A DNA stretch of 63,992 nt, filler included, from Circinaria calcarea (Eukaryota): assembly GCA_051942165.1 (NCBI GenBank). It is 5 parts of 5 records of this genome, joined end to end, with 100 filler letters (N's around TTAATTAATTAA, not from the genome) between each part and the next. Parts side by side here need not be neighbours in the genome. Positions count along the whole stretch, not along the records: positions 39,591 to 52,647 come from JAVECS010000527.1; 4 more parts are not named here. One strand, 5' to 3'. Position numbers and translations under genes: made by a program. Each line of letters begins with the position of its first letter. Within the stretch, counting starts at the first letter, position 1. The notes beneath the pieces are model-generated. The model was not told where the DNA came from, ran no database searches, and worked only from the letters and a program-made list of their open reading frames with translations. This document shows positions 13,115 through 57,555 of this stretch, in pieces.

Positions 13115-13214
13115 NNNNNNNNNNNNNNNNNNNNNNNNNNNNNNNNNNNNNNNNNNNNTTAATTAATTAANNNNNNNNNNNNNNNNNNNNNNNNNNNNNN
13201 NNNNNNNNNNNNNN
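13115..13214. other. Artificial contig spacer
   Basis: 44 N + TTAATTAATTAA (stops in all six frames) + 44 N. Confidence 0.99.
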
Positions 13215-26306: not shown

Positions 26307-26406
26307 NNNNNNNNNNNNNNNNNNNNNNNNNNNNNNNNNNNNNNNNNNNNTTAATTAATTAANNNNNNNNNNNNNNNNNNNNNNNNNNNNNNNNNNNNNN
26401 NNNNNN
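26307..26406. other. Artificial contig spacer
   Basis: 44 N + TTAATTAATTAA + 44 N. Confidence 0.99.
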
Positions 26407-39490: not shown

Positions 39491-39590
39491 NNNNNNNNNN
39501 NNNNNNNNNNNNNNNNNNNNNNNNNNNNNNNNNNTTAATTAATTAANNNNNNNNNNNNNNNNNNNNNNNNNNNNNNNNNNNNNNNNNNNN
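39491..39590. other. Artificial contig spacer
   Basis: 44 N + TTAATTAATTAA + 44 N. Confidence 0.99.
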
Positions 39591-39993
39591 AGTGGGGAGT
39601 GGGGAGTGGGGAAAGTGGAAGGCGGGAAAGGGAGGAGAAGAGCAAGGGAGATGAGAAGGGAAAAGGGGCGGGGGTAAGGTAATGGGTAGGATTACCTTGT
39701 TAGGAGGATTGGCGGGAGGAATAGTACTACTGGAAATACCCAAAACTCAGGTCACCAATTAAAAAGTGCATTTTCACAACTCAACTTGCACGTTTATACT
39801 CCCATTGTTAGATTATGTCTGCCAAGATACCACCGCAACTTCATGCTGGCATTCTTTCTACCTACTATACGTTGCAGTATCGAATTCCATCACAGATAGT
39901 CCGCCGCCCTTGCCCTCCTACTCTTCCCACCGGCAGCGCCTCCAGCCTCCTAGCTAGGGCTTCTCCTTCTCCTCAAAGGCTCCGATGATTCTC

Positions 39994-40606
39994 TTACGCC
40001 CCATTCCCATCCCCATTCCTATTCGCATTCCCATCCCTCTCCTCCTTTCTCCCCACCATAAGAAATATAGGGGAGAAAATTCTCTCGCGGCCCCCGTCCA
40101 CTAAGCTCCGTGCCGTAATCTCTAACGTCTCCGCCGCTCGTATTGTTCCCCCCGGATATAACCTTAGGCCCTCGAGGCTCTTGAATAATTCGATTATAAT
40201 TATACGGCCTTACTTGGCCATGCGAAATAATATTAATATATTTTATTAATTTTATACGTCCCGTTACCGCCCCGCGAGTAGATATTACTAAATGACCCGG
40301 TCCCTTTTATTAGCGAGGTTATCGTGGCGGGTTAAAATAAAGTTGGTGGTGGGTATAACGGCCAGGGCCTCGAATTAGGTAACGAGGTAAAAAATGCTGT
40401 CGCCGAGCTCGATACGGTGCCGGATAGAGCGGTGGGTGGGGTTGAGGAGAGAATAAAAAAGGGTAAAGACCCACTCGTATACGGCGAAGAGGCCGCCGGG
40501 TTTTAAGACCCGGTGAATCTCCATATACGGCCGAGAGGGAGGGGGCGTGGAGAGTGGCTTCGATAGCGTAGATAGTATTAAAGAAGTTGGGGGGGGAAGG
40601 GATTTC
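39994..40606 (-). pseudogene. ERG6: Sterol 24-C-methyltransferase (ERG6-like) C-terminal exon relic, RIP-mutated
   Basis: Minus-strand translation after a CAG acceptor: [17 protein letters not shown]/[frameshift][18 protein letters not shown]...[14 protein letters not shown]...NLANKRDRVI**YLLAG...FRMAK*GR...SLVDGGRERIFSPIFLMVGRK. Many TAA/TAG codons fall at expected Trp/Gln positions. Confidence 0.88.
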
Positions 40607-41160
40607 CTGTAGAGAAAACCGCGAGAGAATTAGAATTAGGGCCTTTGTTTATTGTACATGATGAACGACGATGAATTGGGTTTAAGGGAAAGAGCCAAGT
40701 ATATCGTACCATAACGTCTCCCTTGATAAACTCCACCTGACTCTCCAGGCCAGCATCGTGGGTATGCTTCCTCGCGCGCTCGATCTAGGGATTAATACAA
40801 CTAGGTTAACAGTAAGCAAGTAGTACCTAAGCAACTATATACTATCGAGTCTTTTTCTAGCATTCAGAGCTCGCATAAGTTATCATATGCTCGCTAGCCA
40901 ATGAATTAATTATCTATTCGATACCACTCTTTTTTCTCATAGATCTATCTCAATACTAGTCGGCCATGATTATTGGAGATCACTAACGTAATCCTTGCAA
41001 CGTGATTGATTGAGTTTGATATAGCTATACATTGATCATTCCAACTGCTTCCAACTGCGCTATAAAGTTAGTACCCCGTTACCTACCCGACCCTTCCAGA
41101 AATACTCACGATTGAAACGTACTATCTTGTATATTCGATAGTGGTAGTATACAATATAGA

Positions 41161-41513
41161 CTAGTCCCTCAAGTCCTGAACGGAGAGTTTCTCAGCCTCA
41201 TACTCTTTTAGCTTTCGTACATGACTAGTAGTATCATCAACAGTTGGAGGTGCTTACTTTGGTAAGCGCTCTTGGTGCTGTGATCAGAGTGTCGGAGTCA
41301 TTGGTCTGGAGAAACAATATATGTCAGGTTTCTGGATAATGTTTACTTCTTCCCTTTTCTCCCCTTTTCCCCAAGCTCCCTTGAAGGTGCCTGCTTATTC
41401 GATAATGCCGAGCTACGTACCTTTATGGTATAATTATCTGGGAAAAGCCGCTCCAAAAGTTCGAAAAGCTTTTCCAATACTAGATATTGGTTCTTGATGA
41501 TCGTTTCCGCCAT
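41161..41513 (-). CDS. Unannotated ~60-aa alpha/beta microprotein, 3 exons, divergent from the kinase-TPR gene
   Basis: Exon 41513-41421 MAETIIKNQYLVLEKLFELLERLFPDNYTIK, donor GTACGT, branch CTGAC and CAG acceptor; exon 41305-41258 TNDSDTLITAPRALTK, donor GTAAGC; last exon ...AEKLSVQDLRD* (TAG 41163-41161, acceptor ambiguous). Absent from the ORF track. Confidence 0.72.
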
Positions 41514-42040: not shown

Positions 42041-45000
42041 ATGTTTTCTACACGCGACGATTCATTTTTCACCCGTCCTGCCATCTCACCCAAGGAGGTA
42101 AAGAATAAACTGCAAAGTGATTTGATCCAATTCCTTGCGGCTGTAAAAAGGAATCGCATCGATTTCCTACCTATCATGTGGCAGCCTGCGCTGGGTAACC
42201 TTGGTCGGGGAGCCTCAGCACAGGTGAGTCAGTCTGTTATCGACATCACATCTGGATTTGCATTTAAGCGCTTCTCTAACTCAGAAGATGCTGACTTATA
42301 TTCACCAATGATAAACGAGGTTTCAATACTGAGTCTAGCCCCGATCCAAAGCCATCGTAACATCGTCAACCTCGAAGGGATCTGTTGGGAAGTAAGGAAA
42401 ACGCCAAAGGAAACTGACTTTGAGGTATTCCCCGTGCTGGTGTATGAGAAAGCGGCGTGCGATCTGGTGCATTTCATGAATACAGACGATGGAAAAAACA
42501 TATCAGTTGGCGATCGACTCAGAATATGTACAGAAATAGGACATGCTATTATGACTTTACACTCTGTAGGTATGTTACTCAATCCCGTCACTTAATCCTG
42601 CTCCTTCCTTTCAAGATATTGTCTAAAAAAGATATAGATGTGATCCATGGTGATCTAAAGCCACAGAATGTATTAGTGTTCAGGACTGCTACAGGCGGCA
42701 TAACAACAAAGGTCACTGATTTCGGATATTCCGCACTTTGGCAAAGCTCGACACAAAGCGTTTATCTACCAAAGTCAAGGCCATGGAATGCTCCTGAGCT
42801 TGATTCCCGGAACAACTTCACGCTCTCTGAAGCTAAGAAGATAGACGCTTACTCCTTTGGCATGCTTTGTTTCTGGCTTTTGGTTGGGCACAGCATCTTG
42901 GATACCCCGATTGATATTGAGGGCCAGCTTGAGTCTGTTTCGTTCGACCTACCATCTGTTCGCGGTCAGCTGTCGTTGCTCGAAGAGCTGAAGCACAGAG
43001 ACAAAATGGAGGAGGTTGCTTATCAACTGGCCCGAAAAACATCAAGCTTGGAAGCCGAGTATGAATCTCGTCTGAAACCTCTCTTTGGCCTAACAATTAC
43101 TGGTAATATTAAAAGAAGGACCTCCGATTTCGGCGAACTAATTGTGCTTTTTGATCAAGAACGGTGAGCGCAAAGCATGATCCCACACTTTTGAATTACA
43201 AATTTGCGCTGACAATATTAGAATATGTCCTCAGCAATGGACAGTGCAACAGTTCGACGATGGGGATTTTCGCGTAATAAATAAACCTCTCCTATACGCA
43301 TATAAAGCACTTGGCTTACTTCTGATTAAGCTTGCCGACAACCTCGTGGACTTGATGAAATGTGATTACCGTGTACGGAAACATATTACGAGCTGCCTCC
43401 ATCTTAGATTTTCCTTAGCCAGCACCGAGTCATCCGCTGAAAGCATAGCCTTCCAACTTGCATTCTGCTATCAAATTGGATTTGGAGTTAGAGCAGATGC
43501 AACCCAGCTGCGGCTTTGGCTAGAAAAGACCAAGAAGGAGGTAATGGATCTTGAGATCGAAAGAGACGCCGTGCGTTCATCCCCCTATCGAAATGAGAGG
43601 ATGCACAAGCTTTATGGCGAGGATCTCCTCAGTAGAATTGATCTTATCCATGAATATCGAGCTTGGGGAACGAAAGGTCTGGAGGAGGCTCTAAGAGAGT
43701 ATCGGCTTGAAGTCGGTAGTATGTCACGAGTTTTTGGAGAAACTCATGTCATATCAATATCCCTGTATGAAATCATTGGTGATCTACAAGACGAGTTAGG
43801 TTACTTCGACGAATCGAAGGCACTACGAATGCGAATCAGGGATCTTCTAGTCAAGATACATGGTATTGATCATCTAAGATGCCTTCAATGGTCACTCGAA
43901 GTAGTCAAGGTACACATTAATTGCGAGGAGTTTGAAGAAGCACAAGCTTTACAGGAGAATTTTCTAAGACGCATGGGTGAGATTGATGATGGAAGAGGTC
44001 TGGCGCTATCAGGTATCAAAAAAAATCTTGCGATTATCCTTTTAAGGCAAGAAAAGTATGAGCAGGCTGAGAAATTGAGTACACAAGTCGTGGAGACCAG
44101 TTCGAAATTACTAGGGCTAGAGCACTCTGACACAGTGACCAGCTTAGGTGTGCTAGCAGCATGCTATAGAGGTCTAAAGCAGTGGAAGAATGCAGAACGA
44201 TTGCAAGTACAAATTGCAGAAACAAGAAAGAAAACACTAGGTGCGGACCATCCTTTGACTGTGCTTGCACTGCGACTTTTAGGTAAAATATATTTTGAGC
44301 AGGCACAATGGAAGCAGGCAGAGGAATTACAAACCCATGTTTTCAAAACAAGTGTACAGGTCTTGGGGGCTGAAAATCCAGATACGTTAATGGCTATGGC
44401 TGATCTAGCATTCAATTACAAAGCGCAAGATCGGTGGAGGGAAGCAGAAGGACTATATTTAGATCTCTTAGAAATAAGGCGAAGAATACTAGGAGCAGAA
44501 CACACCGCTACGATGGAGTGTATGGCGATTTTGGCAGCAATATACAGGGAGCAAGAACAGTGGAGAAAGGCAGAGGGATTCGCAATACAGATTATCAAAC
44601 AAATGGAGAAAATCTATGGAGTAGATCATCCCTGGACAATGGAGGAAACGTCCAAACTAGCCTCAGGCTTCCGGAACCAGAAGCAAACAAAGAAAGCCGA
44701 AGAACTTCAGCTGAAAGTATTGGAGAGAAGAAGAAGGGTACTAGGGCCAGAAGATCCAGACACACTGCGCAGTATGACTGAGCTAACCCTGACATATATG
44801 AACTTAGAGAATTGGGGAAAAGCCCTGGAACTAGGGAAATTAGTAGTAGGTGCCAGCATCAGTAAATTAGGGGAGGGCCATCCTGATACGCTAATCAATA
44901 TCTCTAATTTGGCGGGAGTATACTGGAACCAGGGACGTTTACAAGAGGCAGAAGAATTGGATATCCACGTCATTGATACACAGACAAAGGTCTTGGGAGC

Positions 45001-45664
45001 GGATCATCCCGATACGCTGGATAGTATAAATGCGTTGGCTGCCACATTCTGGAGCCAAAAGCGCTGGAAAGAGGCCGAGAAGCTGACAAAGCAGATCATA
45101 GAGATAAGGAGCAGAACACAAGGAGAGGACCATCGTGACACCCTGGCCAGCATGGCGACTCTAGCATCCATGTATCAGGAGCAGATGCGCTGGAAAGAGG
45201 CTCAGATGCTGAGAACACAAGTAATGGAGACTAGAAAAAGAGTACTTGGAACAGACCATCCGGAAACACTGGAGAGTATGTCCATAGTGGCTATGACAAA
45301 CTACTGGCTTGGACGGCACCCTACGCAAGATCAGGCCGCCGGTCAGAAAGAGGCCGAGGAGTTGCAATTGCGGGTCTTGAATACGAGACAACGAGAGCTG
45401 GGACCAGAGCATCCAGATGCACTCGCCAGTATGGTCAACGTGGCGTGGACACTTCGAGATCAGAAAAGGGACATGGAGGCTGAAGAACTTGAAGCGAAGA
45501 TGAACGAGTTGCAAGTACGGTCTATCACAGGGAACATGCCAGATACTGAGCGGCCATGCCCAACGTCTATCGCAATTCTCTGGAAAGCCAAAGGTCGAGC
45601 GCGGCCAGCGGAGCAATATGTAGAGCAGGAGTCAGGTGACGAGTCGACTAAGGTGGAAAATTGA
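42041..45664 (+). CDS. Protein kinase fused to kinesin-light-chain-type TPR array (~1150 aa), no NOD domain
   Basis: Exons 42041-42569, 42638-43163 and 43222-45664 (possible extra in-frame intron 43274-43330). Intact kinase motifs LGRGASAQV, FAFKR, INE, HGDLKPQN, TDFG, WNAPE, DAYSFG. Linker AFQLAFCYQIGFG, then TPRs. Confidence 0.9.
44111..45500 (+). repeat. 42-aa (126-nt) TPR repeat array
   Basis: LGxxHPDT-like motif starts at 44111, 44237, 44363, 44489, 44615, 44741, 44867, 44993, 45119 and 45245 (exact 126-nt period), plus 45398 after a 9-aa insertion. Two or three degenerate units lie upstream. Confidence 0.92.
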
Positions 45665-45861: not shown

Positions 45862-47830
45862 ATGAGTTCCGTGGGCTGGGTATAAATATGTTTTCACATT
45901 GGCCGACTTCAGTAGTATAGCTAACCGTGTCGAATTTTGTAGGAGCACCGCATGTCCGGATGGCAGAAGTACCCTGCGACCTTTCCTCCTTCTATCACTG
46001 GAGGGTACGATGTATGCGACCTCCAGGAGCGATTGGAGCAGGAAAGTACTTTACTCTTTACCGACGAACTAGCCAAGATTAGATTAGAGGTCCTGATTCC
46101 GGCAGACGGTAAGATTACACAGTGAAAGAGACCAAGTCCAGGAGAGTTTGAAACTGGTACAGCGAACTTACCGTCCTGATAATTCATGGACAGATGAGCT
46201 TGTGCTTATCTCTAGGAATGAGGATCTGGAACGCTTTCTAGAGGTAAGCGATCCGCTATAAGTCGAGACAAAAGCATAGTACGACTGACTTAATACCCAC
46301 AGAAAATGATGGATAGTGGGATGACTAAGTTCTTGTAAGTAGCTATAAGAATGCTCCTCAGTGCCGCTCAGACTGAGAGCCCCTTCTATGCAGCTTCATT
46401 TGCCAGCGTAATTCATGGACACGCCTTAAGATTTCATACGGCATGTTTCAGATGCTCTGTCACTTCTATCAAGTCTTTCCTAAGTATCTGGAGTCTGTAT
46501 TCAAATTTGGCGCTAAAACATCCAGCGCCGAGGAGTACCTTGGGGCAGGGTCTTTTTGTTGCATGCGTGAAAGCGATGTACTTGGATCCAGTGGGAACAA
46601 GTCCGCAACCTTTGGTATAGTACCTGAAGCTGTTCAGGCTACTTTCTTTTATTCACAATTCGCAGAAATCAGTTACACTATAGGCCACGCAGAAAAGCAT
46701 GGTAGAGCATTGAAAGACCCTTGGTCGTGTCGGCAGTTCGCCATCTATCAGAAGTATTACTGCCAGAAAAATTCCTCCGTGTGGATTCTCATTCAGGTTT
46801 CGAGCCGTATTAGAGCCCACTTGGAAAGAACGTTTAGCCAAAGCAGCGAGATAAACAGCTTGGCTCCGTATGATCACCCTATCGGCCAACATATTTCTAT
46901 CTTGCATTCTTCTGAGAGGAACTGGAGCACTTACATTGGCTACTTGGGGAGCGAATTGTCTTCGATGGTAAGGCTGCCCTATCCGGGTCTCGAGAACTTT
47001 CCGGGTATTAAAAGACAGGTGCTATATACTAACTATAGTGCAAAGAATCAGATCATATCGTTCCCTAGAGGTTTAAGCGAGTATGATGTGAATTTATCCC
47101 ACAGCCAAAAACTGATACACATACGCCGGAAGTTAGAGAATGCGTTATCAATACTTCGTGCAAATCTCGACGTTGCTTTACTTTTGTCAAATCAAGCTAA
47201 AGACGTGTACAAACGTACCAAGGTCTCCTCAGATAGTAAGGACCATTTCCGATCAGAAGTACAGCAATACAAATCAGTAATGATTTGCCACATCCGCAAT
47301 ATTGAACGACATCTAAAGTTTTCAGAAGATATCCGTCTCTTGGTAAAAACAGACATTCTCATTGCAAGCTACTCGGATTACTTATGCTATATAGATTCTT
47401 AAAATTATGGGATTCCAAAACGACGAACTTCTTTTTAAGAACAGCGTCTCGCTGAAAGAGATAGCCGACGAAACCTCGTCCGAAAATAAAGCCATGGTGT
47501 CAATGACAGGTCAGTTTGTGGTAGACTCGCGGACCACAAAGCTTGCCACCTTGATAGCCACAGTTTATCTGCCAGCAAGTCTGTTAACCGTCAGTTTCCC
47601 TCCATATTTTGGCTTCTGTATGACTAAGCTCATATCCATTGTGAAAACAATAGTCGTTCTTTAGTACCAGTTTGATTCAGTTCAACCCAGGGAACGGTGG
47701 TGCTATTAACGTGACGATAAGAAAAGAGATCTGGATACTTTTCGTTTTAGCTCTACCTCTTATGGTACTTACGGGAGCTTATGTGCACTTCGTAGGACAG
47801 AGACAGAAGAGACCTAGATCGTTCTCCTGA
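45862..47830 (+). CDS. Fungal CorA-like protein with two C-terminal TM helices (~480 aa, 8-9 exons)
   Basis: Reconstructed exons (45862-45879?), 45943-46108, 46194-46243, 46303-46334, 46394-46614, 46666-46967, 47046-47342, 47395-47589, 47654-47830; alternative start ATG 45952. Motifs FICQRNSWTRLKIS, VFKFG, EISY..EKHGR...PWSCRQFAIYQKY, NWSTYI, a long helical stalk, then DSRTTKLATLIATVYLPASLLTSFFST...IWILFVLALPL. Confidence 0.82.
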
Positions 47831-48056: not shown

Positions 48057-51035
48057 CTATATTCGTAGTCTAGTCAACTCCCCAAGAGGGCCCACAACTT
48101 TATCGTAGAATGTCCCTAGTATGCTCTGCCCTTCCATCACGGTAGAGTGAGGTCGATTCTCTTGATTAAAATCAGCCTGCAGGCATGCTAAAGTAGCATT
48201 TGTGTAGACCAGACCCATGGTGTGATTTAGCCGTGGTGCGTATTTATCAATGAGTACTTTTCGAAACGCCGAAGGGTTTAGCTCGAGTTCTCTGTTGTTT
48301 TGAAGGAATGTGTGCAAGATATTCCAGCTTCCAAGCTCTAGAAGAATTATTCCGAGACTGTAATAGTCGAAAACTTCTTGGAAGGTGTTGTTGCCAGAAG
48401 AATAATCCGGGTGTTGGTAATGCTGTAAGCTGTCCTTACTTCCTGTGTCTAGGCGTTCGGATTCATTTACGTTCTCCGAAGACCGTGAGGGGCGAAGATT
48501 GATCAGGTAGGGGCGTTCGAGTAGAGACGAGAGAGCCGGTGTACGTCCCCCCTCTTTGAAGAAAACTACGTTCTTCGAGTTCAGGTTTTTGTGTAACCAT
48601 CCTGCCATATGCAGTTCCCGTATACAGCTGACTAGCTTATACGCTAAGCGATACTTATCCCCCAACGGGAAATCGAATTTAGACCAAGACTTGAGAATGT
48701 CCCACAGATCTATTGGGACCGTTCTCTTATGCCACTCTGGCCTCCCTGGAAGATTACCGCGAGGAAAGGTATAAATCAAGCAATGATCATGCAGTCCACG
48801 ACCTCGCATATCTGATATTTCCACAAAGCCGAGACACTCCAAGATTCTAAAGCCTTCAGGCCAAGACTTTCCATGGAAAAATTTAGCCCTCACCTGCATG
48901 AATTGGTATTTTTGGGTTGTTGACAACTCCATCCACCGACGTGTGAGCGGAACCGACTCAATGAATACCTGCGTATCATCGTACAGGCCAATCTGGACTC
49001 CCTCACCAAAGTCCCGTTCGGTGTGAAGTTTCTCTAATGACAGAAGCAAACCTGCCTCGTGGAACACATGAGCCTCTGACAAATGTCTTTCATTTTCTTC
49101 CAAGCGTAAATTCTCCACTTTTGCTACCGCAAATGCACCCAATTCCGAATAAGCGTCGGATTGGGGGCTAAGGCTAGTATTGTGAAGTACATCATCAATT
49201 TTACCTTCCGTATTTAGCGATTCTTCCAGCCAAACTTGCCTGAGCTTTTCCTGGTAAAGTATGGGGACTGCCATCCAGAGCTGTTCGACCAGTTCCTGAA
49301 TTTCGTCGTGGAAGGATTTCCGAATCGAGAAGATGACTGCCGACTTGGAGGATGGCTCGGTTTGACGCTCTTTGTCATCTGAGTTGAGTAACTCAAGTAA
49401 TTTGATAAGGATTCTATTGAAATATTGAGGCTCATGACCGACAGGTAAAATGCAATCAGCCAAAGATCTGCCTTCGATCAGCTGCAAGACTTTGGCCCAA
49501 GCCATAAGGCGGCCGTATTCATTTTGAATGGCTCGAATCTCCAGTCGTTTATCATTTTCATGTTGGGCGAGTTCAAGGTATTTGTCAAAAGATTGTTGCG
49601 CAGCCTCTATTAGAGCCTTCAAGCTAAGAAATGAGAGCTGCCGATAGACCTCAGCTGCTTTGGGCCGACCAATAGGATCTATCCTAAGCATGAGAGCTGC
49701 TTGGTCCAGTAAGTCACGGAATACCGCACTGTCTGCTTGGGCAACTGACTCCTCACACCAATCAACGACAGACTTCCTGAGACTGGTTCCCGAAAAAAAC
49801 CAATGGTCTGTGATTTGTGGCTTGTGGGCACTCCCATAACGCCGATTATGGAAACTAATCACACTCTTTGGCCCACCTCTGATGTAAGCTGCGATTTCTA
49901 AGATCATACAGCCAAATGACCATATATCTAATGGACGTCCTACTTCTTGCCGCATCAAACTTGAATTCATACATTCCGGCGCAACATAATCTCCCAGACC
50001 AGCTTTCCAGTTTGTTCCAGACACTTCCTCCGACGGCTTCATCCTGGCAAGCCCAAAGTCTGCCAAATAAAACGTTTTAGAATCAACAAGGACATTAGCT
50101 GGCCGAATATCGTGATGATATCCTATTCGTTGAAGCTCCACATCATGATCTTTTGTATTAAGGTTAAGTGAGTGAATCACTGCAATTGCTGAAGAAAGAC
50201 CTTGCAGAGCGGTGTAGAACATATAGTCATTCGTGAACCCCCCAGAAAACTTCTGGAGCTGTAGAAATTGTTTCAGATCAGTTGGAAAGTGTGGGAAAAG
50301 AAAGTAATGATGATCAAGATGAGTATACGAGCCTAAAAGCTGTATGATGTTTGGGTGCTGGAAACGATTTAGAATTTGGAGACACTGCTTTTCTCGTTCT
50401 AAAAAGTCTCCATCGAGTTTCTTTATTCTCTTTTTGACAATGAAGACTTCATCTCTCTAGACGTCATTAGTCACATTTAATGGAAGATAAGCGTGTCCTC
50501 AGCCACATACCGGTTCGGAATAAATGGTCTGCAAAGAAGGAGAGACAGATATCTTGAAAACATCACCGAATCCTCCCTCGCCCAGCCATTGTTCGTGGAC
50601 AAACGGCAATATCTCCTCATCACGAAACTTACAATGGTAACCACTCATATCTTTTGTCAATATCCTGGGCAAGAATTCCCATTGTACGTTCCGAGCAAGC
50701 TCCCACCCTAAGGTTTTGGTAGCAACCTTCTCGGCCGTTTCTATATCGAGGGGCAATTGCTCGTCTAGGACGTTATTTTCAATAAATCTTATCAGCTCAT
50801 GATGCCATTTTTTCCATACGAGAATTCCGAATATAATTTTACCCTCGTTGAAAACGAGATTAACGATATTAGGCTTCTGGTATTCGGGAATAGGGCACTC
50901 ATGAATGACTCCCTTGATAATATCTCTTGTAAGTAGAGTCTTCACTTCGTGAGGGTCAATAAAGTAGCGTTTATCGGTGGACTCTCTGCGCAGTTTCCCA
51001 ATTTCGCCTCGTAAGATTTCTATCATGGGTCCCAT
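48057..51035 (-). CDS. Tandem kinase: N-terminal helical domain - active kinase - HeLo-like domain - pseudokinase (~974 aa)
   Basis: ATG 51035; intron 50510-50457 (GTATGT..CTAAT..TAG) joins ORFs 50499 and 48057 in frame. Kinase 1: GEGGFG, IVKK, EREK, HHDIRPAN, DFG, APE, DIWSFG. Middle: IQNEYGRLMAWAKVLQL (HeLo-like ExxRLxxW). Kinase-like domain 2: VFIE, FRILECLGF, LHKNLNSKNVVFF, PYLINL, YQHPDY, DYYSLGIILLELG. Confidence 0.9.
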
Positions 51036-51499: not shown

Positions 51500-52276
51500 A
51501 TTACGTTCAACAGGTTTAGGAGGTTAAAGGATTGGCATTCTCCCATTTACTACGGCTATTAGCAGAAGTAGAAGGAGCATGACCTGAGTAGGGGGTGAGT
51601 ACTCTCGATCGTAGCCAGAAGGAAACGGTGTGGTCAGTCCTAACCGTACTTGTAATATGGAGACCCAATCGCATGGCTGGGTCGAATGGTGTTGCCTTGT
51701 ATGCGTATGGGCTTTGGTGAGATTGCGCTTGAGAAATCTCAATATTGAAGTACATCTTATCCTCTCACAAAGCTGGTAAGCTGCTTGGCAATGAAAGACA
51801 GAAAAACCCAAGAAAGAAACAATACCGAGTAGTAAACTCTCTAGGGCGGGTCTGATAATAGTAGGATTTGACTTCCTTAGGCGCTCCCAGTAAAGCTACC
51901 TGTAGAGCCTTGGCTTTCCTTGCTGGCAGTTTCTGCTTCCGTTTTACGTCATAGTAATAAAGTCGATAGCTGGGGTTGGAAGAAGAGCGAAGGTTGAGAA
52001 ATCGTTCCCGAGTAGGTTTGTGATAATCTTTGATGTGTAGCTCGTATAGAGAAAACTCAAGAGAGCCTTCAGAGCCTGAATTGGAGGGAGAACCATAGCG
52101 AAGAAGGTAATTCCGTATCCATGCCAAACGTTCATTGATCTCTTCTCTGGAGATGTTTGCCACAAGAGAAGCACGATGTTGAGCCCAAAATGTGTAAGAC
52201 GCAGCTCCATCTCTTCAGGAAGGTACTTTCGAAGGTCTCTATCGTCGAGAGTTTGGCAAACCAGGCAAGCTAACAT
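51500..52276 (-). pseudogene. Possible degenerate N-terminal part of a HET-domain gene
   Basis: MLACLVCQTLD start and a second CxxC (SCFSCGK) in a shifted frame. In-frame TGA at 51767-51765 between ORFs 51765..52163 and 51516..51755, then ...TVSFWLRS...GH and a frameshifted PK/LLNV resembling the PxRLLdV entry to HET domains. Confidence 0.3.
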
Positions 52277-52647
52277 CTTAATGATGTTAAGAAGACTACA
52301 CTGGTATTCGCCTTTGGCTGGGGATTTGATGTTAAGATGACGAATTTAGAGTCGATATTTTTGAATTCCATAGAGTGACAATGCAGATTAGGGCATTTAC
52401 TGTGGACTGTTGAGCTGGGCTAATCGATGTGGGAGCTGCATACCCTGTATTTGAATTGCAACGAACTAATTGAACCATGTTGCCTTCTAGACAACAGACA
52501 TGATTGACGAACCTGCACATGATTAAGAAGACTCTTTTCAAATGACCGGTCACTAGAATCCCAAGGTGAGCACCACCAAAGAAGGAGCCGATGTGCGACG
52601 GATCAAAAACCTCCGCCACCGTATACGCAATCCACGTCATCCCAGAT

Positions 52648-52747
52648 NNNNNNNNNNNNNNNNNNNNNNNNNNNNNNNNNNNNNNNNNNNNTTAATTAAT
52701 TAANNNNNNNNNNNNNNNNNNNNNNNNNNNNNNNNNNNNNNNNNNNN
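52648..52747. other. Artificial contig spacer
   Basis: 44 N + TTAATTAATTAA + 44 N. Confidence 0.99.
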
Positions 52748-53893: not shown

Positions 53894-55228
53894 TTAACCC
53901 CATGTGGCCATACCTTGCGAATACGGATAGCTAGCACCCGGAAAGAAGCTCTGGGCAAGGTTGACAGTGCCTCTTCCCTGACTGATGTCATAAACGTTGA
54001 GCCCGGTGCGGTTAGTTGGGAAATTGGCGCTCAAGCTATAGACAAAATCCCCACTGACTTGGAGGTCGGTTTGGCCGAAATTGCCGTTCGCCGAAATATT
54101 TACTACCGTGACAATCTCCCCTGAGTCGACGTCCATTTCGATCAGGTTGTTAACCGCGCCATCGGTGAAAAACGCTGTCTCGGTAAGCTCGGAGTAGCCA
54201 GCCCAACAGGTAAATACGGTCGTAGGAAAGACCGTGCGTATCTTGGTGGTGGCAGTAAGGGTGTCCTCGTCGTACGTAATCACTCCACCGCCGTAAGAGG
54301 CATCTGCGAGGACAATGTCCTTCGTACCCGGGATGATGGCGGCTCCGAACATGACCCCAGCACCCTCGGGTGTGGTCCTCACCACGTCATATAAAACCGC
54401 ATCGCGGTTCACTCGGAAAGCGGCCAAGAAACCAAAACTTCCCAGCTCAGGAACGACTGTGACAGGAAGGCCCAGCTGGTTGTCTCTCGGCTGTCCTTTC
54501 ACGTCGGCGAAGAGAATGTTCTCCTCTTCACTGAAAAACACGGTCGAGATTCCGTTGTACGCATTAAAGGGCGGTGTGGTATTGTTAAGACCGAAATCGC
54601 GTCGAGCGTCAAAAGGCTTGAGGCCAGTACGAGTGGAATATGACGCACATGAAATGCCGGACTGTACCCCGTTTTGGCCCACGCATGCGAGCCGGCGTCT
54701 TCGTGAAATACCCACGGTTGTAGGGAAATCGCCGCGGGTATTCATGGGGGTTCCAAGCATGGTCAACTTGGTTGGATCCCTGTTGTCAATGGTAAACATG
54801 GTGAGGGTATTCGAGCCAGGATTGACGACAAATAGATTCTAGTTTCACGGTTGTCAGTTCTGGTCACTGAGGTTGGAGGTACCAACATCTCTTCTGGTGG
54901 CGGAAACTGAAGATTAACTCACCCTGCCAACAACCTTTACAGACCCCGCGCTGGCCAGCGCGTCTACGGCGGCAGGTTCGGTACCGGTGAATGGATCGAT
55001 AGTCGCACCACCGAGCCCGCCAGTGGGTGTGACCGTCATTCCGTTTTTGCGGAGCTGCCCGTTACGCCCGACAGGTACAGCAACAACCGAGTTGGGTTGA
55101 TTGGGATCGTTGGTCATGAAGTAAAGCACTTGGGGCGCGTTGAGCCTTCGAGAAGTAAGAGGTGTTGCATTAACGACTACCGAGAAGGCAAGTATTGCCG
55201 CAAGGATAGATCGAGATAGGAGAGACAT
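53894..55228 (-). CDS. Secreted lactonase-like beta-propeller (3-carboxymuconate cyclase-like, gp60/70 type), 2 exons
   Basis: Signal peptide MSLLSRSILAAILAFSVVVNA; YFMTND..NSVVAVPV...G.L, TPTGGLG, DALASAGSV, intron 54922-54839, LFVVNPGSNTLTMFTI...DPTKL, GDFP, TCW. TATA upstream near 55360. Confidence 0.85.
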
Positions 55229-57555
55229 GTTCGTCTGGAATATTCTTGCCAAGAAGTGTTTAGAGCCGGTCCAAATGCTTAAGCAAGATCGCAGTTTGAT
55301 AGAGGAGAAGTGAGATTTTGAGTATGAATAGGGATTGAAGAGCGTTGCGGTCCTCTTTATATATACAGGAAGACCCTTGTGGACAAAGTGACATGATGAT
55401 AGCCTTGGTCTCGGCCATCCCCGAGTCAGGTGCCAAGGTAGGCGGTTGTCATCTCTTGGTGTTGTATTTTGCTGGAGTTGATGAAGGAGTGCACTGAGAA
55501 GCCTCCACCGTCGATTGTATAATCACTGATCCTTGCAAGGAGCGTTTACCCACGCTATTGGGCTCCGCAATGTAACCCTAATGCAAGGTCCCGCATCATA
55601 TATCGCGGAAATCCAGGCATTACCCAGGTAATCGGTGAGGCCGTACATCATGGTCGCATTGGAACAAAACTTATTTTGCATGCGAGATCAAGCCATCCTA
55701 TTCCTGGCAGACCTCGGGAGAGAGTCACCGATGCTCTCCGATACGGTTGACGACAGCTATGGTGGAGCGTGAATTAAGAAAGACCAGTACAGACACAATG
55801 TAACTCCTGCTTTCTCCTCCCAAGAGGTACCAAACTACTAGTTTTGGATGATACATGCTCTAAATACCACGGTTATGGGAGTTTGTCTTGCACATTCTAG
55901 GTATAATACTCCAGGCTGCCGCCGCTTCAAAGCACGCACGCACGGTTATAGGTAGTGTAGCGGCAAGTAGTCAAATTACCGCCGCAATCTGACGCCGTAG
56001 TAGAGCCGTATAGGGGGAGGTAATGTTCGATCCATTTATTTGGAACGAAATGCAAATCACCAGTCAGGAGCGTAAATACCTATGAAGTCTGCTCTGAGGA
56101 TAACATACTCCCACAGCTAGCCGTATTTCGCTTCGCAGGTTGGTTCCCGGGACTTTTTTCTGGACACCTTCGCCTCGTCCTTTCTCGTCTCTCCTCTCTT
56201 GCGAACGTAGACACCGGCGATCATGGGAGCGCTCTCCATTCGGTATGGCGACAATCCTGAGTTTTCTTTACTGTTGATACAGGCCGAAACGGCAGGAGTC
56301 AGCTGCCAACTCGTTCATATCTTGACTGATACTATGTACTCTGGTGGCGAGCGACGCAGAGCCAAGGCACGTCTAAGAGGGCTTGAGAATATGAAAACCG
56401 GCGAGATGTACCGTGTGATGACGCAATTTGGACTCGGCCAAGCCAAGGTAACCTCTAAGTATCGGTGAGGATTACGGGCGGCTATTGTCTGGGTACGCGT
56501 GCCCAGGTTCTACCTTAGATTGCCGTTAATCAAGTTGTTCGACGTTACTATGGAAAATAGGATCGCTTCAGCTAAAAGAAAGACTGGCTTAGCGAGGTGG
56601 GATTGAATCAAGAGCCCGGCAGGTTTCTGGCCTTCCAATCAGCTCGATCTGATGGAGAAGTCGACCCTTTGAGGTAAGTAAGAGCGACAACAACGCATCA
56701 CAGTAAACAATCGACTCCGTGCAGCTATCGAGAGGGTTTTTGCACGTCGTATTGGTCATTTGCCCTCGTTCCAAGGCCGTTTCTCATCAGCGTTAGCCAT
56801 TACAGATAGTGATCCGGATCGCGATCCGGGTGACATTGGAGAATCGCAGCGCTTGTTGGAAGATGGAACGTCCGCCTCTGCAACCGCTTGATGTGGGCAT
56901 GAAATCCCGCAGTGAGGAATTGAGATCGAGCGTTGACTAGATATGCGTAGCGCTTACAACGATAACGCTGCGATTGACCATTACTTCAAATCGATGAGAT
57001 AGGTGAAGGATCCCTGCGACGGAAAAGGAAACCTCGGCGGAAGAAAGCAAATCCCATCTTATCTCGCTTTCGAGCGGTCTTGATGAGCTCACCTAACGGC
57101 GATGCGCGCCTAAATTTCCTTGGCAGAATGCTACTGCGAACGGGCGCTAGTTCCAGAAGCATGGGCCAAGGATCTCGGGAAGCCTGCCGATCCGATCGCG
57201 TTTATTCTTCATGATCCTAGGCCCTAATCTGACGACATGTCTTGGCAATCGCTGCTGTCGATCGCAGCGGGCCTTATTTTATGTGAGACCTTAATGCATA
57301 CCTATTTAAAGGAGATCCGGGCAGATCAGGCCATGCAGCTAGGACTGGTGATATAACTCACATTCGGTAGAAGCATGATTCAATTAAGAAAGTGGTCTTA
57401 GCGTGGCTACATAGAGATTATCGAAGGAGAAAACCTGGGCATAGGGGCTAGCCTTTAATACGGGTCTTAAGCGTAACAAGTTTCATTGCATTTACCACCT
57501 ATTGGTGCTAACTAGTTTACATGTCTTGCATGCTTTTGAATCTTGGTGTCTTCGC

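Follow-up and report, generated by a model that had tools for sequence, protein, structure and literature searches.

A gene on the minus strand of contig C527 of the fungus Circinaria calcarea encodes a 974-amino-acid (aa) tandem kinase, in which an active-looking Ser/Thr kinase (kinase 1), a HeLo-like helical bundle, and a pseudokinase follow one another in a single chain. On profile comparison, its C-terminal ~530 aa (residues ~445-974) is homologous throughout to the fungal MLKL-like HeLo-pseudokinase proteins, and the gene belongs to a conserved four-gene cluster with a kinase carrying tetratricopeptide repeats (TPRs; gene B), a CorA-like gene (gene D), and a microprotein gene (gene M). 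We tentatively propose, with a little less than even confidence, that the tandem kinase is the middle tier of a kinase relay in this cluster and not a self-contained killer. Jointly, the four genes are likely to constitute a so far undescribed self-defence signalling chain: our literature search, in which subscription papers and supplements (such as tables of NLR-domain architectures) lay outside the scope, found no description of the fusion or of the cluster, and a search for DUF7580 found no paper. The window analysed is the whole stretch of 63,992 nt; it consists of five contigs joined through blocks of N, and genes on opposite sides of a join are not neighbours. The tandem kinase gene has the following parts:

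50511-51035, minus strand: exon 1, encoding a ~140-aa N-terminal domain common to the kinase family and the glycine-rich loop of kinase 1 (GEGGFG).
50457-50510, minus strand: intron of 54 nt, GT-AG (GTATGT...CTAAT...TAG), with a CTAAT branch site, falling between codons.
48057-50456, minus strand: exon 2, 799 codons plus stop, encoding the remainder of kinase 1, the HeLo-like bundle, the brace helices, and the pseudokinase.
49650-50600, minus strand: kinase 1, spanning the intron, with catalytic residues present, an HHD (non-RD) loop, and conserved activation-loop Ser321/Thr323.
49269-49628, minus strand: HeLo-like four-helix bundle (residues ~452-571), whose first helix runs on from kinase 1 and is not transmembrane-like.
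49083-49262, minus strand: brace-like helices (residues ~574-633) between the bundle and the pseudokinase, placed by AlphaFold2 helices and a profile match.
48060-49049, minus strand: DUF7580-type pseudokinase, with conserved activation-loop Ser841 at 48459-48461.

A first-pass annotation of this DNA had joined two open reading frames (ORFs) across a 54-nt intron into a protein of ~974 aa, and the gene model agreed with it. Exons 1 and 2 translated into 974 aa with one stop and aligned end to end with all 13 full-length relatives tested. Five of the 13 were single-ORF, intron-free genes; the two exons therefore encode one protein. Two separate genes, the alternative raised in that annotation, were ruled out because the intron-free relatives carry both parts as one gene. 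A pseudogene or artefact was likewise ruled out by the open frames, the 175 homologues, and the lower nonsynonymous than synonymous divergence (dN < dS) in diverged pairs. The catalytic motifs that had been quoted for kinase 1 were all found in their places (GEGGFG at residue 152, IVKK at 181, HHDIRPAN at 289, DFG at 308, and APE at 334), as were the degenerate motifs of the C-terminal kinase-like domain (VFIE at 672, HKNLNSKN at 797, and INL at 827).

When the family was searched with exon 2, 175 proteins matched at E ≤ 1e-10, and the best 120 of the 175 were used. The alignment consisted of 111 rows, namely the query and 110 of these 120, with one near-identical sequence and nine partial matches left out. 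The named family members among the matches listed came from Pezizomycetes, Sordariomycetes, Dothideomycetes, and lichen fungi; judged from these matches, the family is widespread in Pezizomycotina. The C. calcarea genome contained seven full copies of the tandem kinase, 28-35% identical to the query. In kinase 1, all 111 rows had Asp291, Asn296, and the DFG Asp, and of 86 ungapped rows, 82 had the beta-3 Lys; the activation loop carried Ser/Thr at position 321 in 105 rows and at position 323 in 108. Kinase 1 is therefore intact-looking, judged from its conserved motifs. In the second domain, the beta-3 Lys position was Glu/Asp in 111 of 111 rows and both catalytic Asp occurred together in only one, with Ser/Thr at activation-loop position 841 in 108 rows and a Pfam DUF7580 match in 50 of 52 family members. 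By these residues, the second domain is a pseudokinase across the whole family. Every domain of the tandem kinase was under purifying selection in diverged pairs, and between close relatives the pseudokinase was about as conserved as kinase 1.

The middle region had been described as a HeLo-like helical stretch of ~130 aa. It is indeed helical, and it is longer, comprising the ~120-aa bundle (452-571) and ~60 aa of brace-like helices (574-633). Its HeLo likeness stood through a chain of profiles leading to the HET-s HeLo domain, and failed to appear as a Pfam match or as a structural match above background. Pfam HeLo did not match the query or the query's middle region alone; in paralogues it scored 16.6 and 13.5 bits against a curated cut-off of 23.2, and it weakly matched 10 of 52 family members (best E 0.001). 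It strongly matched a HeLo-DUF7580 gene that encodes a stand-alone protein of 550 aa in C. calcarea itself (E 9e-18), and a profile built from 27 of 35 relatives of this protein was colinear with residues 444-974 of the query (hhalign probability 100). The probability was 88 for the middle region alone, brace helices included, against the corresponding region of the stand-alone proteins, and 59 for the bundle alone; all 34 controls (30 made by block shuffling, one reversed sequence, and three different segments) remained at ≤ 8.7. The stand-alone profile in turn found the HET-s HeLo domain (2wvo, E 3e-8), IRAK4, and the MLKL pseudokinase (E 2e-7). The AlphaFold2 model of exon 2 (predicted local distance difference test [pLDDT] 89.9, predicted template modelling score 0.90) was a rigid three-domain structure containing four bundle helices and three brace-like helices, and a model of the middle domain alone had a pLDDT of 82.7. 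With the latter, Foldseek gave no match at E ≤ 0.001. In a structure scan of 48,161 chains, HET-S (2wvo) was third, with Z 8.8 and an rmsd of 5.5 over 134 aligned residues, and MLKL 4btf scored Z 7.3, with an rmsd of 3.3 over 93; the top 14 included Sw-5b, Rx-CC, MLA13, and two MLKL entries, interleaved with unrelated bundles. The three best named atlas clusters for the middle domain were HeLo (0.79-0.80), which we treat as a lead only. The HeLo core motif, NEYGRLMAWAKVLQL in the query (residue 487, position 49523), was retained in much of the family (R in 91, W in 82, and G in 77 of 111 rows). Descent of the middle domain from HeLo is well supported, on the strength of profile comparison and structure and not of a Pfam match in the query.

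HeLo and HELL activity depends on an N-terminal helix with transmembrane propensity, according to PMC10197012 and PMC12881547, and an N-terminal extension of such bundles leaves their function open (PMC9815663). We measured helix 1 by its best 17-residue hydropathy window with a threshold of ≥ 1.6, which was reached by 4 of 111 fused rows versus 23 of 26 stand-alone rows. The value was 0.82 in the query, with a median of 1.01 in the fused family versus 1.91 in the stand-alone forms, and the window held 0.2 glycines in fused versus 3.7 in stand-alone proteins. The Gly-rich hydrophobic helix 1 of the stand-alone proteins aligned with the end of kinase 1's last helix. In the predicted model, one unbroken helix leads from kinase 1 into the bundle, which is internal, from residue ~452, and not at a free N terminus. 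The bundle looks disarmed, having apparently lost its membrane-piercing helix. Because it runs straight on from the final helix of kinase 1, it has no linker for release, and the earlier suggestion that the bundle is set free by cleavage or a change of shape is weakened. The first-pass annotation had further held that an activating kinase and its executioner are fused in one chain: the active-looking kinase, the HeLo-like bundle, and the pseudokinase are all there, and the idea of a self-contained killer is weakened by the loss of helix 1 and by the partner genes.

At the locus, the tandem kinase lies tail to tail with gene D, followed by gene B and then gene M:

45952-47830, plus strand: gene D, multi-exon and CorA-like, with C-terminal hydrophobic helices; start codon and exon borders predicted.
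42041-45664, plus strand: gene B, a Ser/Thr kinase (FAFK, HGDLKPQN, DFG, APE) with a helical linker and ~11 TPRs; two predicted introns.
41258-41513, minus strand: gene M, a conserved, here divergent, microprotein of ~55-60 aa; the interval covers the first two exons predicted, and the last exon, near 41200, is uncertain.

Gene B is predicted from its domains to be a sensor kinase, with no NACHT or NB-ARC match in Pfam. Gene D, predicted to be a channel-like membrane effector, had an atlas score of 0.95 (PF26616 in 100% and 82% of the members of the two best clusters) and a last-exon hydropathy of 2.32. Pfam gave only one weak CorA match among the CorA-like genes, in a paralogue, and GMN, the magnesium-selectivity motif of CorA, was absent from the translated last exons of gene D. 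The microprotein had 58 matches in the 58 locus stretches searched, some of which overlap.

Across 60 metagenome loci and 11 contigs of the C. calcarea genome, we found 56 units with kinase 1 and pseudokinase, as separate genes in one of them (C976). These units formed 44 groups at 90% identity, 31 of which had ≥ 12 kb of sequence. Among the 31, a B-type kinase was present in 27 (25 with TPRs), a CorA-like gene in 25, the microprotein in 28, all three in 21, and none in one; for all 44 groups the counts were 30, 31, 35, 23, and six, respectively. At 60% identity, 24 of 26 groups had a B-type kinase, 22 a CorA-like gene, 24 the microprotein, and 19 all three. Gene order and orientation differed between four-gene loci. 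Because there are only about a dozen B-type genes in the 31.5 Mb of the C. calcarea genome, we estimate the probability of chance adjacency at <1%. In annotated genomes, two of five species-matched pairs lay on one contig, and the accessions were consecutive in two strains of Biscogniauxia. One locus (L063) carried two kinase-TPR genes.

The company of these genes fell into two modules. The twelve B-type kinases of the C. calcarea genome comprised six of TPR type and six ankyrin-type relatives, with two weak matches (C73 and C16) left out of the count. Ten of the twelve shared a contig with a pseudokinase gene, namely the seven fused copies and the genes on C569, C1771, and C42, which lack kinase 1; the other two started ≤ 1.2 kb from a contig end. 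Elsewhere, five of the 20 B-type kinases looked up apparently shared a contig with a stand-alone HeLo-pseudokinase, one such pair having consecutive Thozetella locus tags. Conversely, eight loci with kinase 1 and no pseudokinase had a CorA-like gene in seven cases, the microprotein in five, and gene B in none, and no CorA-like or microprotein gene was seen at the three B-plus-pseudokinase loci without kinase 1. In other words, repeat-bearing kinases go with the pseudokinase, with or without kinase 1, and CorA-like and microprotein genes go with kinase 1, with or without the pseudokinase. We do not rely on Fisher's test (27/31 vs 0/8, p 8e-6), because the loci are related and their flanks unequal. 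In trees made by quick methods, with long branches and no bootstrap, the partner kinases of fused and stand-alone loci grouped apart from kinase 1, a result that we count as weak support.

Kinase-1-type genes that lack a pseudokinase and carry C-terminal extensions of various kinds (L096, L098, L100, L086, L060, L061, and L109-L110) clustered with CorA-like and often microprotein genes. On C569 (L089:4474-10000, L090) and C1771 (L111), a kinase-ankyrin(-TPR) gene stood head to head with a stand-alone HeLo-type pseudokinase having a hydrophobic first helix; if fungi have a true RIPK3/MLKL-like pair, these are its strongest candidates. On C42, a region with HYGGHG and LLDCC motifs, presumably a caspase-like dyad, takes the place of kinase 1 before a related pseudokinase. 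This N-terminal region had no Pfam match, and the gene is a candidate protease version of the same switch. It lies 4-6 kb from a kinase-ankyrin gene; the coordinates of this locus are L093:1670-4012 and L093:7973-10000 with L115:3-590.

From this gene company, we infer all of the signalling steps and the immune role that follow. The locus would be a gene fusion uniting a module of sensor kinase and HeLo-pseudokinase with one of kinase 1, microprotein, and CorA-like protein, and the fused protein may be an adaptor between these two older modules, with the pseudokinase as the target of B and D as that of kinase 1, a reading that we rate at just under an even chance. The TPR or ankyrin repeats of kinase B would sense a non-self or damage signal, and B would phosphorylate the pseudokinase on its activation loop, with Ser841 as the candidate site, just as for the stand-alone MLKL-like proteins beside B-type kinases. 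The pseudokinase-brace-bundle unit would then change shape or oligomerise in the fashion of MLKL and, without a free membrane helix, would switch on the fused kinase 1 rather than pierce a membrane. In turn, kinase 1 would phosphorylate the CorA-like protein, the microprotein acting as its cofactor or brake, and the CorA-like protein might then disturb the membrane and cause ion flux, cell death, or growth arrest. Kinase 1 may also phosphorylate its own pseudokinase. The tandem kinase would work in the manner of an MLKL-type switch, yet it is not MLKL, since its bundle is internal and the membrane helix is lost, nor is it RIPK3.

Several observations weigh against this relay. The HeLo structural match (Z 8.8) lies inside the background of helical bundles. 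The first helix of MLKL is amphipathic and not transmembrane, so low hydrophobicity alone does not prove the bundle harmless. Of the eight kinase-1-only loci, just two are flanked by >7.4 kb on each side, and seven of ten pseudokinase genes without kinase 1 showed no B-type kinase in the DNA examined, these ten being an examined subset, with 10 of 19 DUF7580 matches outside the count. C976, a contig of 9.1 kb without a B or CorA-like gene, carries a lone kinase-1-type gene, a pseudokinase gene of its own standing tail to tail with it, and an NLR, an arrangement that fits the wiring proposed by the first-pass annotation. In a distance-matrix test on 21 complete loci, B tracked kinase 1 weakly (rho 0.28) and the pseudokinase not at all (-0.05); the difference in partial correlation was -0.73 (jackknife SE 0.16), with a partial correlation of 0.41 between B and kinase 1. 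Finally, kinase 1 has conserved activation-loop Ser/Thr of its own, and B could act there directly.

In the same test, the CorA-like gene D tracked both kinase 1 (0.61) and the pseudokinase (0.57). Among 14 close pairs, the partner gene was much more diverged than the tandem kinase in four (76-88% vs 93-99%), and the reverse was seen once. Partner B appears to have been exchanged between haplotypes, and the pattern suggests sensor exchange or balancing selection; such exchange blurs the distance test without cancelling it. Such an imbalance, in which either the TPR partner or the tandem kinase had diverged much further than the other, was seen at L033, L039, L041, and L066, and at L018 and L058. 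The C976 locus (L087), which holds a NACHT-like TPR gene, a helical-domain and pseudokinase gene, and the lone kinase-1-type gene, is a possible split form with an NLR sensor.

In a wiring like that of RIPK1, RIPK3, and MLKL, B would activate kinase 1, which would phosphorylate the pseudokinase of its own chain or of a neighbour, and cell death would come from the bundle once a shape change or cleavage had exposed it. True homology with MLKL-like proteins, Ser/Thr conserved in both activation loops, the closer tracking of kinase 1 by B, the split arrangement on C976, and the retained HeLo core motif all favour this, but helix 1 lacks the hydrophobic Gly-rich stretch, there is no linker, the CorA-like gene (25 of 31 loci) is left without a role, and B-type kinases also occur beside pseudokinase genes without kinase 1; we consider it unlikely. 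The RHIM family was not among the Pfam matches of either exon at E ≤ 1, and structure comparison did not single out RIPK3 as especially like kinase 1: mouse RIP3 came tenth among many tied kinases, with Z 20.9 and an rmsd of 2.9 over 218 aligned residues. A shared arrangement with the TYK2 pseudokinase/kinase was rejected (rmsd 24), and whole-model searches otherwise gave generic kinases.

Alternatively, B may phosphorylate kinase 1 directly, with the bundle-pseudokinase serving as an allosteric brake similar to JAK JH2, or as a decoy or guard for microbial effectors, and the output passing through the CorA-like protein. The B-kinase-1 partial correlation, conserved Ser321/Thr323, and the rigid three-domain model are consistent with this, as is wheat WTK3, which is reported to require the separate executor WTN1, and a decoy/guard role has been proposed for plant tandem kinases. 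However, B was absent at eight of eight kinase-1-only loci and present beside pseudokinase genes without kinase 1, and the pseudokinase is not hypervariable; we consider this alternative improbable. The idea that the cluster is a non-lethal unit for ion homeostasis, stress, or development, with its immune likeness a matter of history only, is the least probable: CorA-type folds are ion transporters (Pfam description; atlas), all domains of the tandem kinase are under purifying selection in diverged pairs, and no phenotype is known, but the genome holds many divergent paralogous clusters (seven here), the TPRs are of the type seen in fungal NLRs, partner genes far outpace the tandem kinase in four of 14 close pairs, clusters of two or three genes are common among fungal cell-death pathways (PMC12881547), and a CorA-related effector acts in bacterial immunity (PMC11014256).

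The relay can be compared with several known systems. A figure legend in PMC12881547 notes HELL domains joined to kinase or pseudokinase domains and two- or three-gene death clusters. In the fungal MLKL-like proteins (HeLo/HELL plus kinase/pseudokinase; Pfam HeLo plus DUF7580), the bundle, brace, and pseudokinase are colinear homologues of those described here, and the stand-alone form, like the fused form, adjoins a kinase-repeat gene. Unlike them, the fused form has an active-looking kinase with its own N-terminal domain in front, a helix 1 that is not transmembrane-like, and added CorA-like and microprotein genes. Animal RIPK3/MLKL and plant MLKLs (such as wheat R3AK) share the four-helix bundle, the brace, the pseudokinase with activation-loop Ser/Thr, and a separate upstream kinase; here, by contrast, the bundle is internal, there is no RHIM match, the upstream kinase bears TPR or ankyrin repeats, and kinase 1 appears no closer to RIPK3 than to other kinases. 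Cereal tandem kinase proteins (WTK3/Rwt4 with WTN1) likewise have two kinase-fold domains per chain and may need a separately encoded membrane executor, but in this case the kinase lineages are fungal, the insert is HeLo-like, and the partners are kinase-repeat and CorA-like proteins; no paired NLR executor of the cereal type was seen, the neighbouring TPR gene B having no NACHT/NB-ARC match. The fungal nwd2/het-S and protease-TPR/gasdermin systems also cluster a repeat-bearing sensor with a membrane-directed protein, with many paralogous clusters per genome, whereas the signal here would pass by phosphorylation through two kinases, not by amyloid templating or proteolysis, from a sensor without a nucleotide-binding domain.

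The accessible part of PMC12881547 names no activating kinase for the fungal MLKL-like proteins and treats the HeLo/four-helix-bundle repertoire as open work. Gene neighbourhoods nominate the kinase-TPR/ankyrin genes for this role, and the locus offers a candidate phosphosite; its four-gene unit is compact and occurs in fungi that can be cultured. If the proposed wiring is true, fungi would have a kinase-driven, necroptosis-like pathway, the MLKL switch would have been reused for enzyme control, and many fungal CorA-like proteins of unknown function would receive a first role. More broadly, and more doubtfully, filamentous ascomycetes may possess a widespread, modular, phosphorylation-based immunity in which NLR-like sensors, with a kinase replacing the nucleotide-binding domain, flip an MLKL-type pseudokinase; this switch would be a portable receiver that kills via its own HeLo helix or turns on a fused enzyme (a kinase here, protease-like on C42), with a kinase-gated CorA-like executioner of a new kind as the output.

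On C935, C160, and C110 (L104, L105, and L106), DUF7580 genes of another subfamily stood head to head with genes having a helical N terminus and a Cys/His-rich, zinc-finger-like stretch; the C160 neighbour also carried TPRs, and no partner kinase was seen at these three loci. The other features recorded in the window were as follows:

51765-52345, minus strand: upstream of the tandem kinase, two ORFs that overlap (133-149 aa), with no notable Pfam match and no relatives in the other loci, hence outside the cluster.
39600-40850, minus strand: exon fragments that resemble a sterol methyltransferase in their motifs.
13115-13214, 26307-26406, 39491-39590, and 52648-52747: N-padded joins.
53894-55522, minus strand, on the next contig: a secreted-looking, beta-rich protein with no Pfam match.

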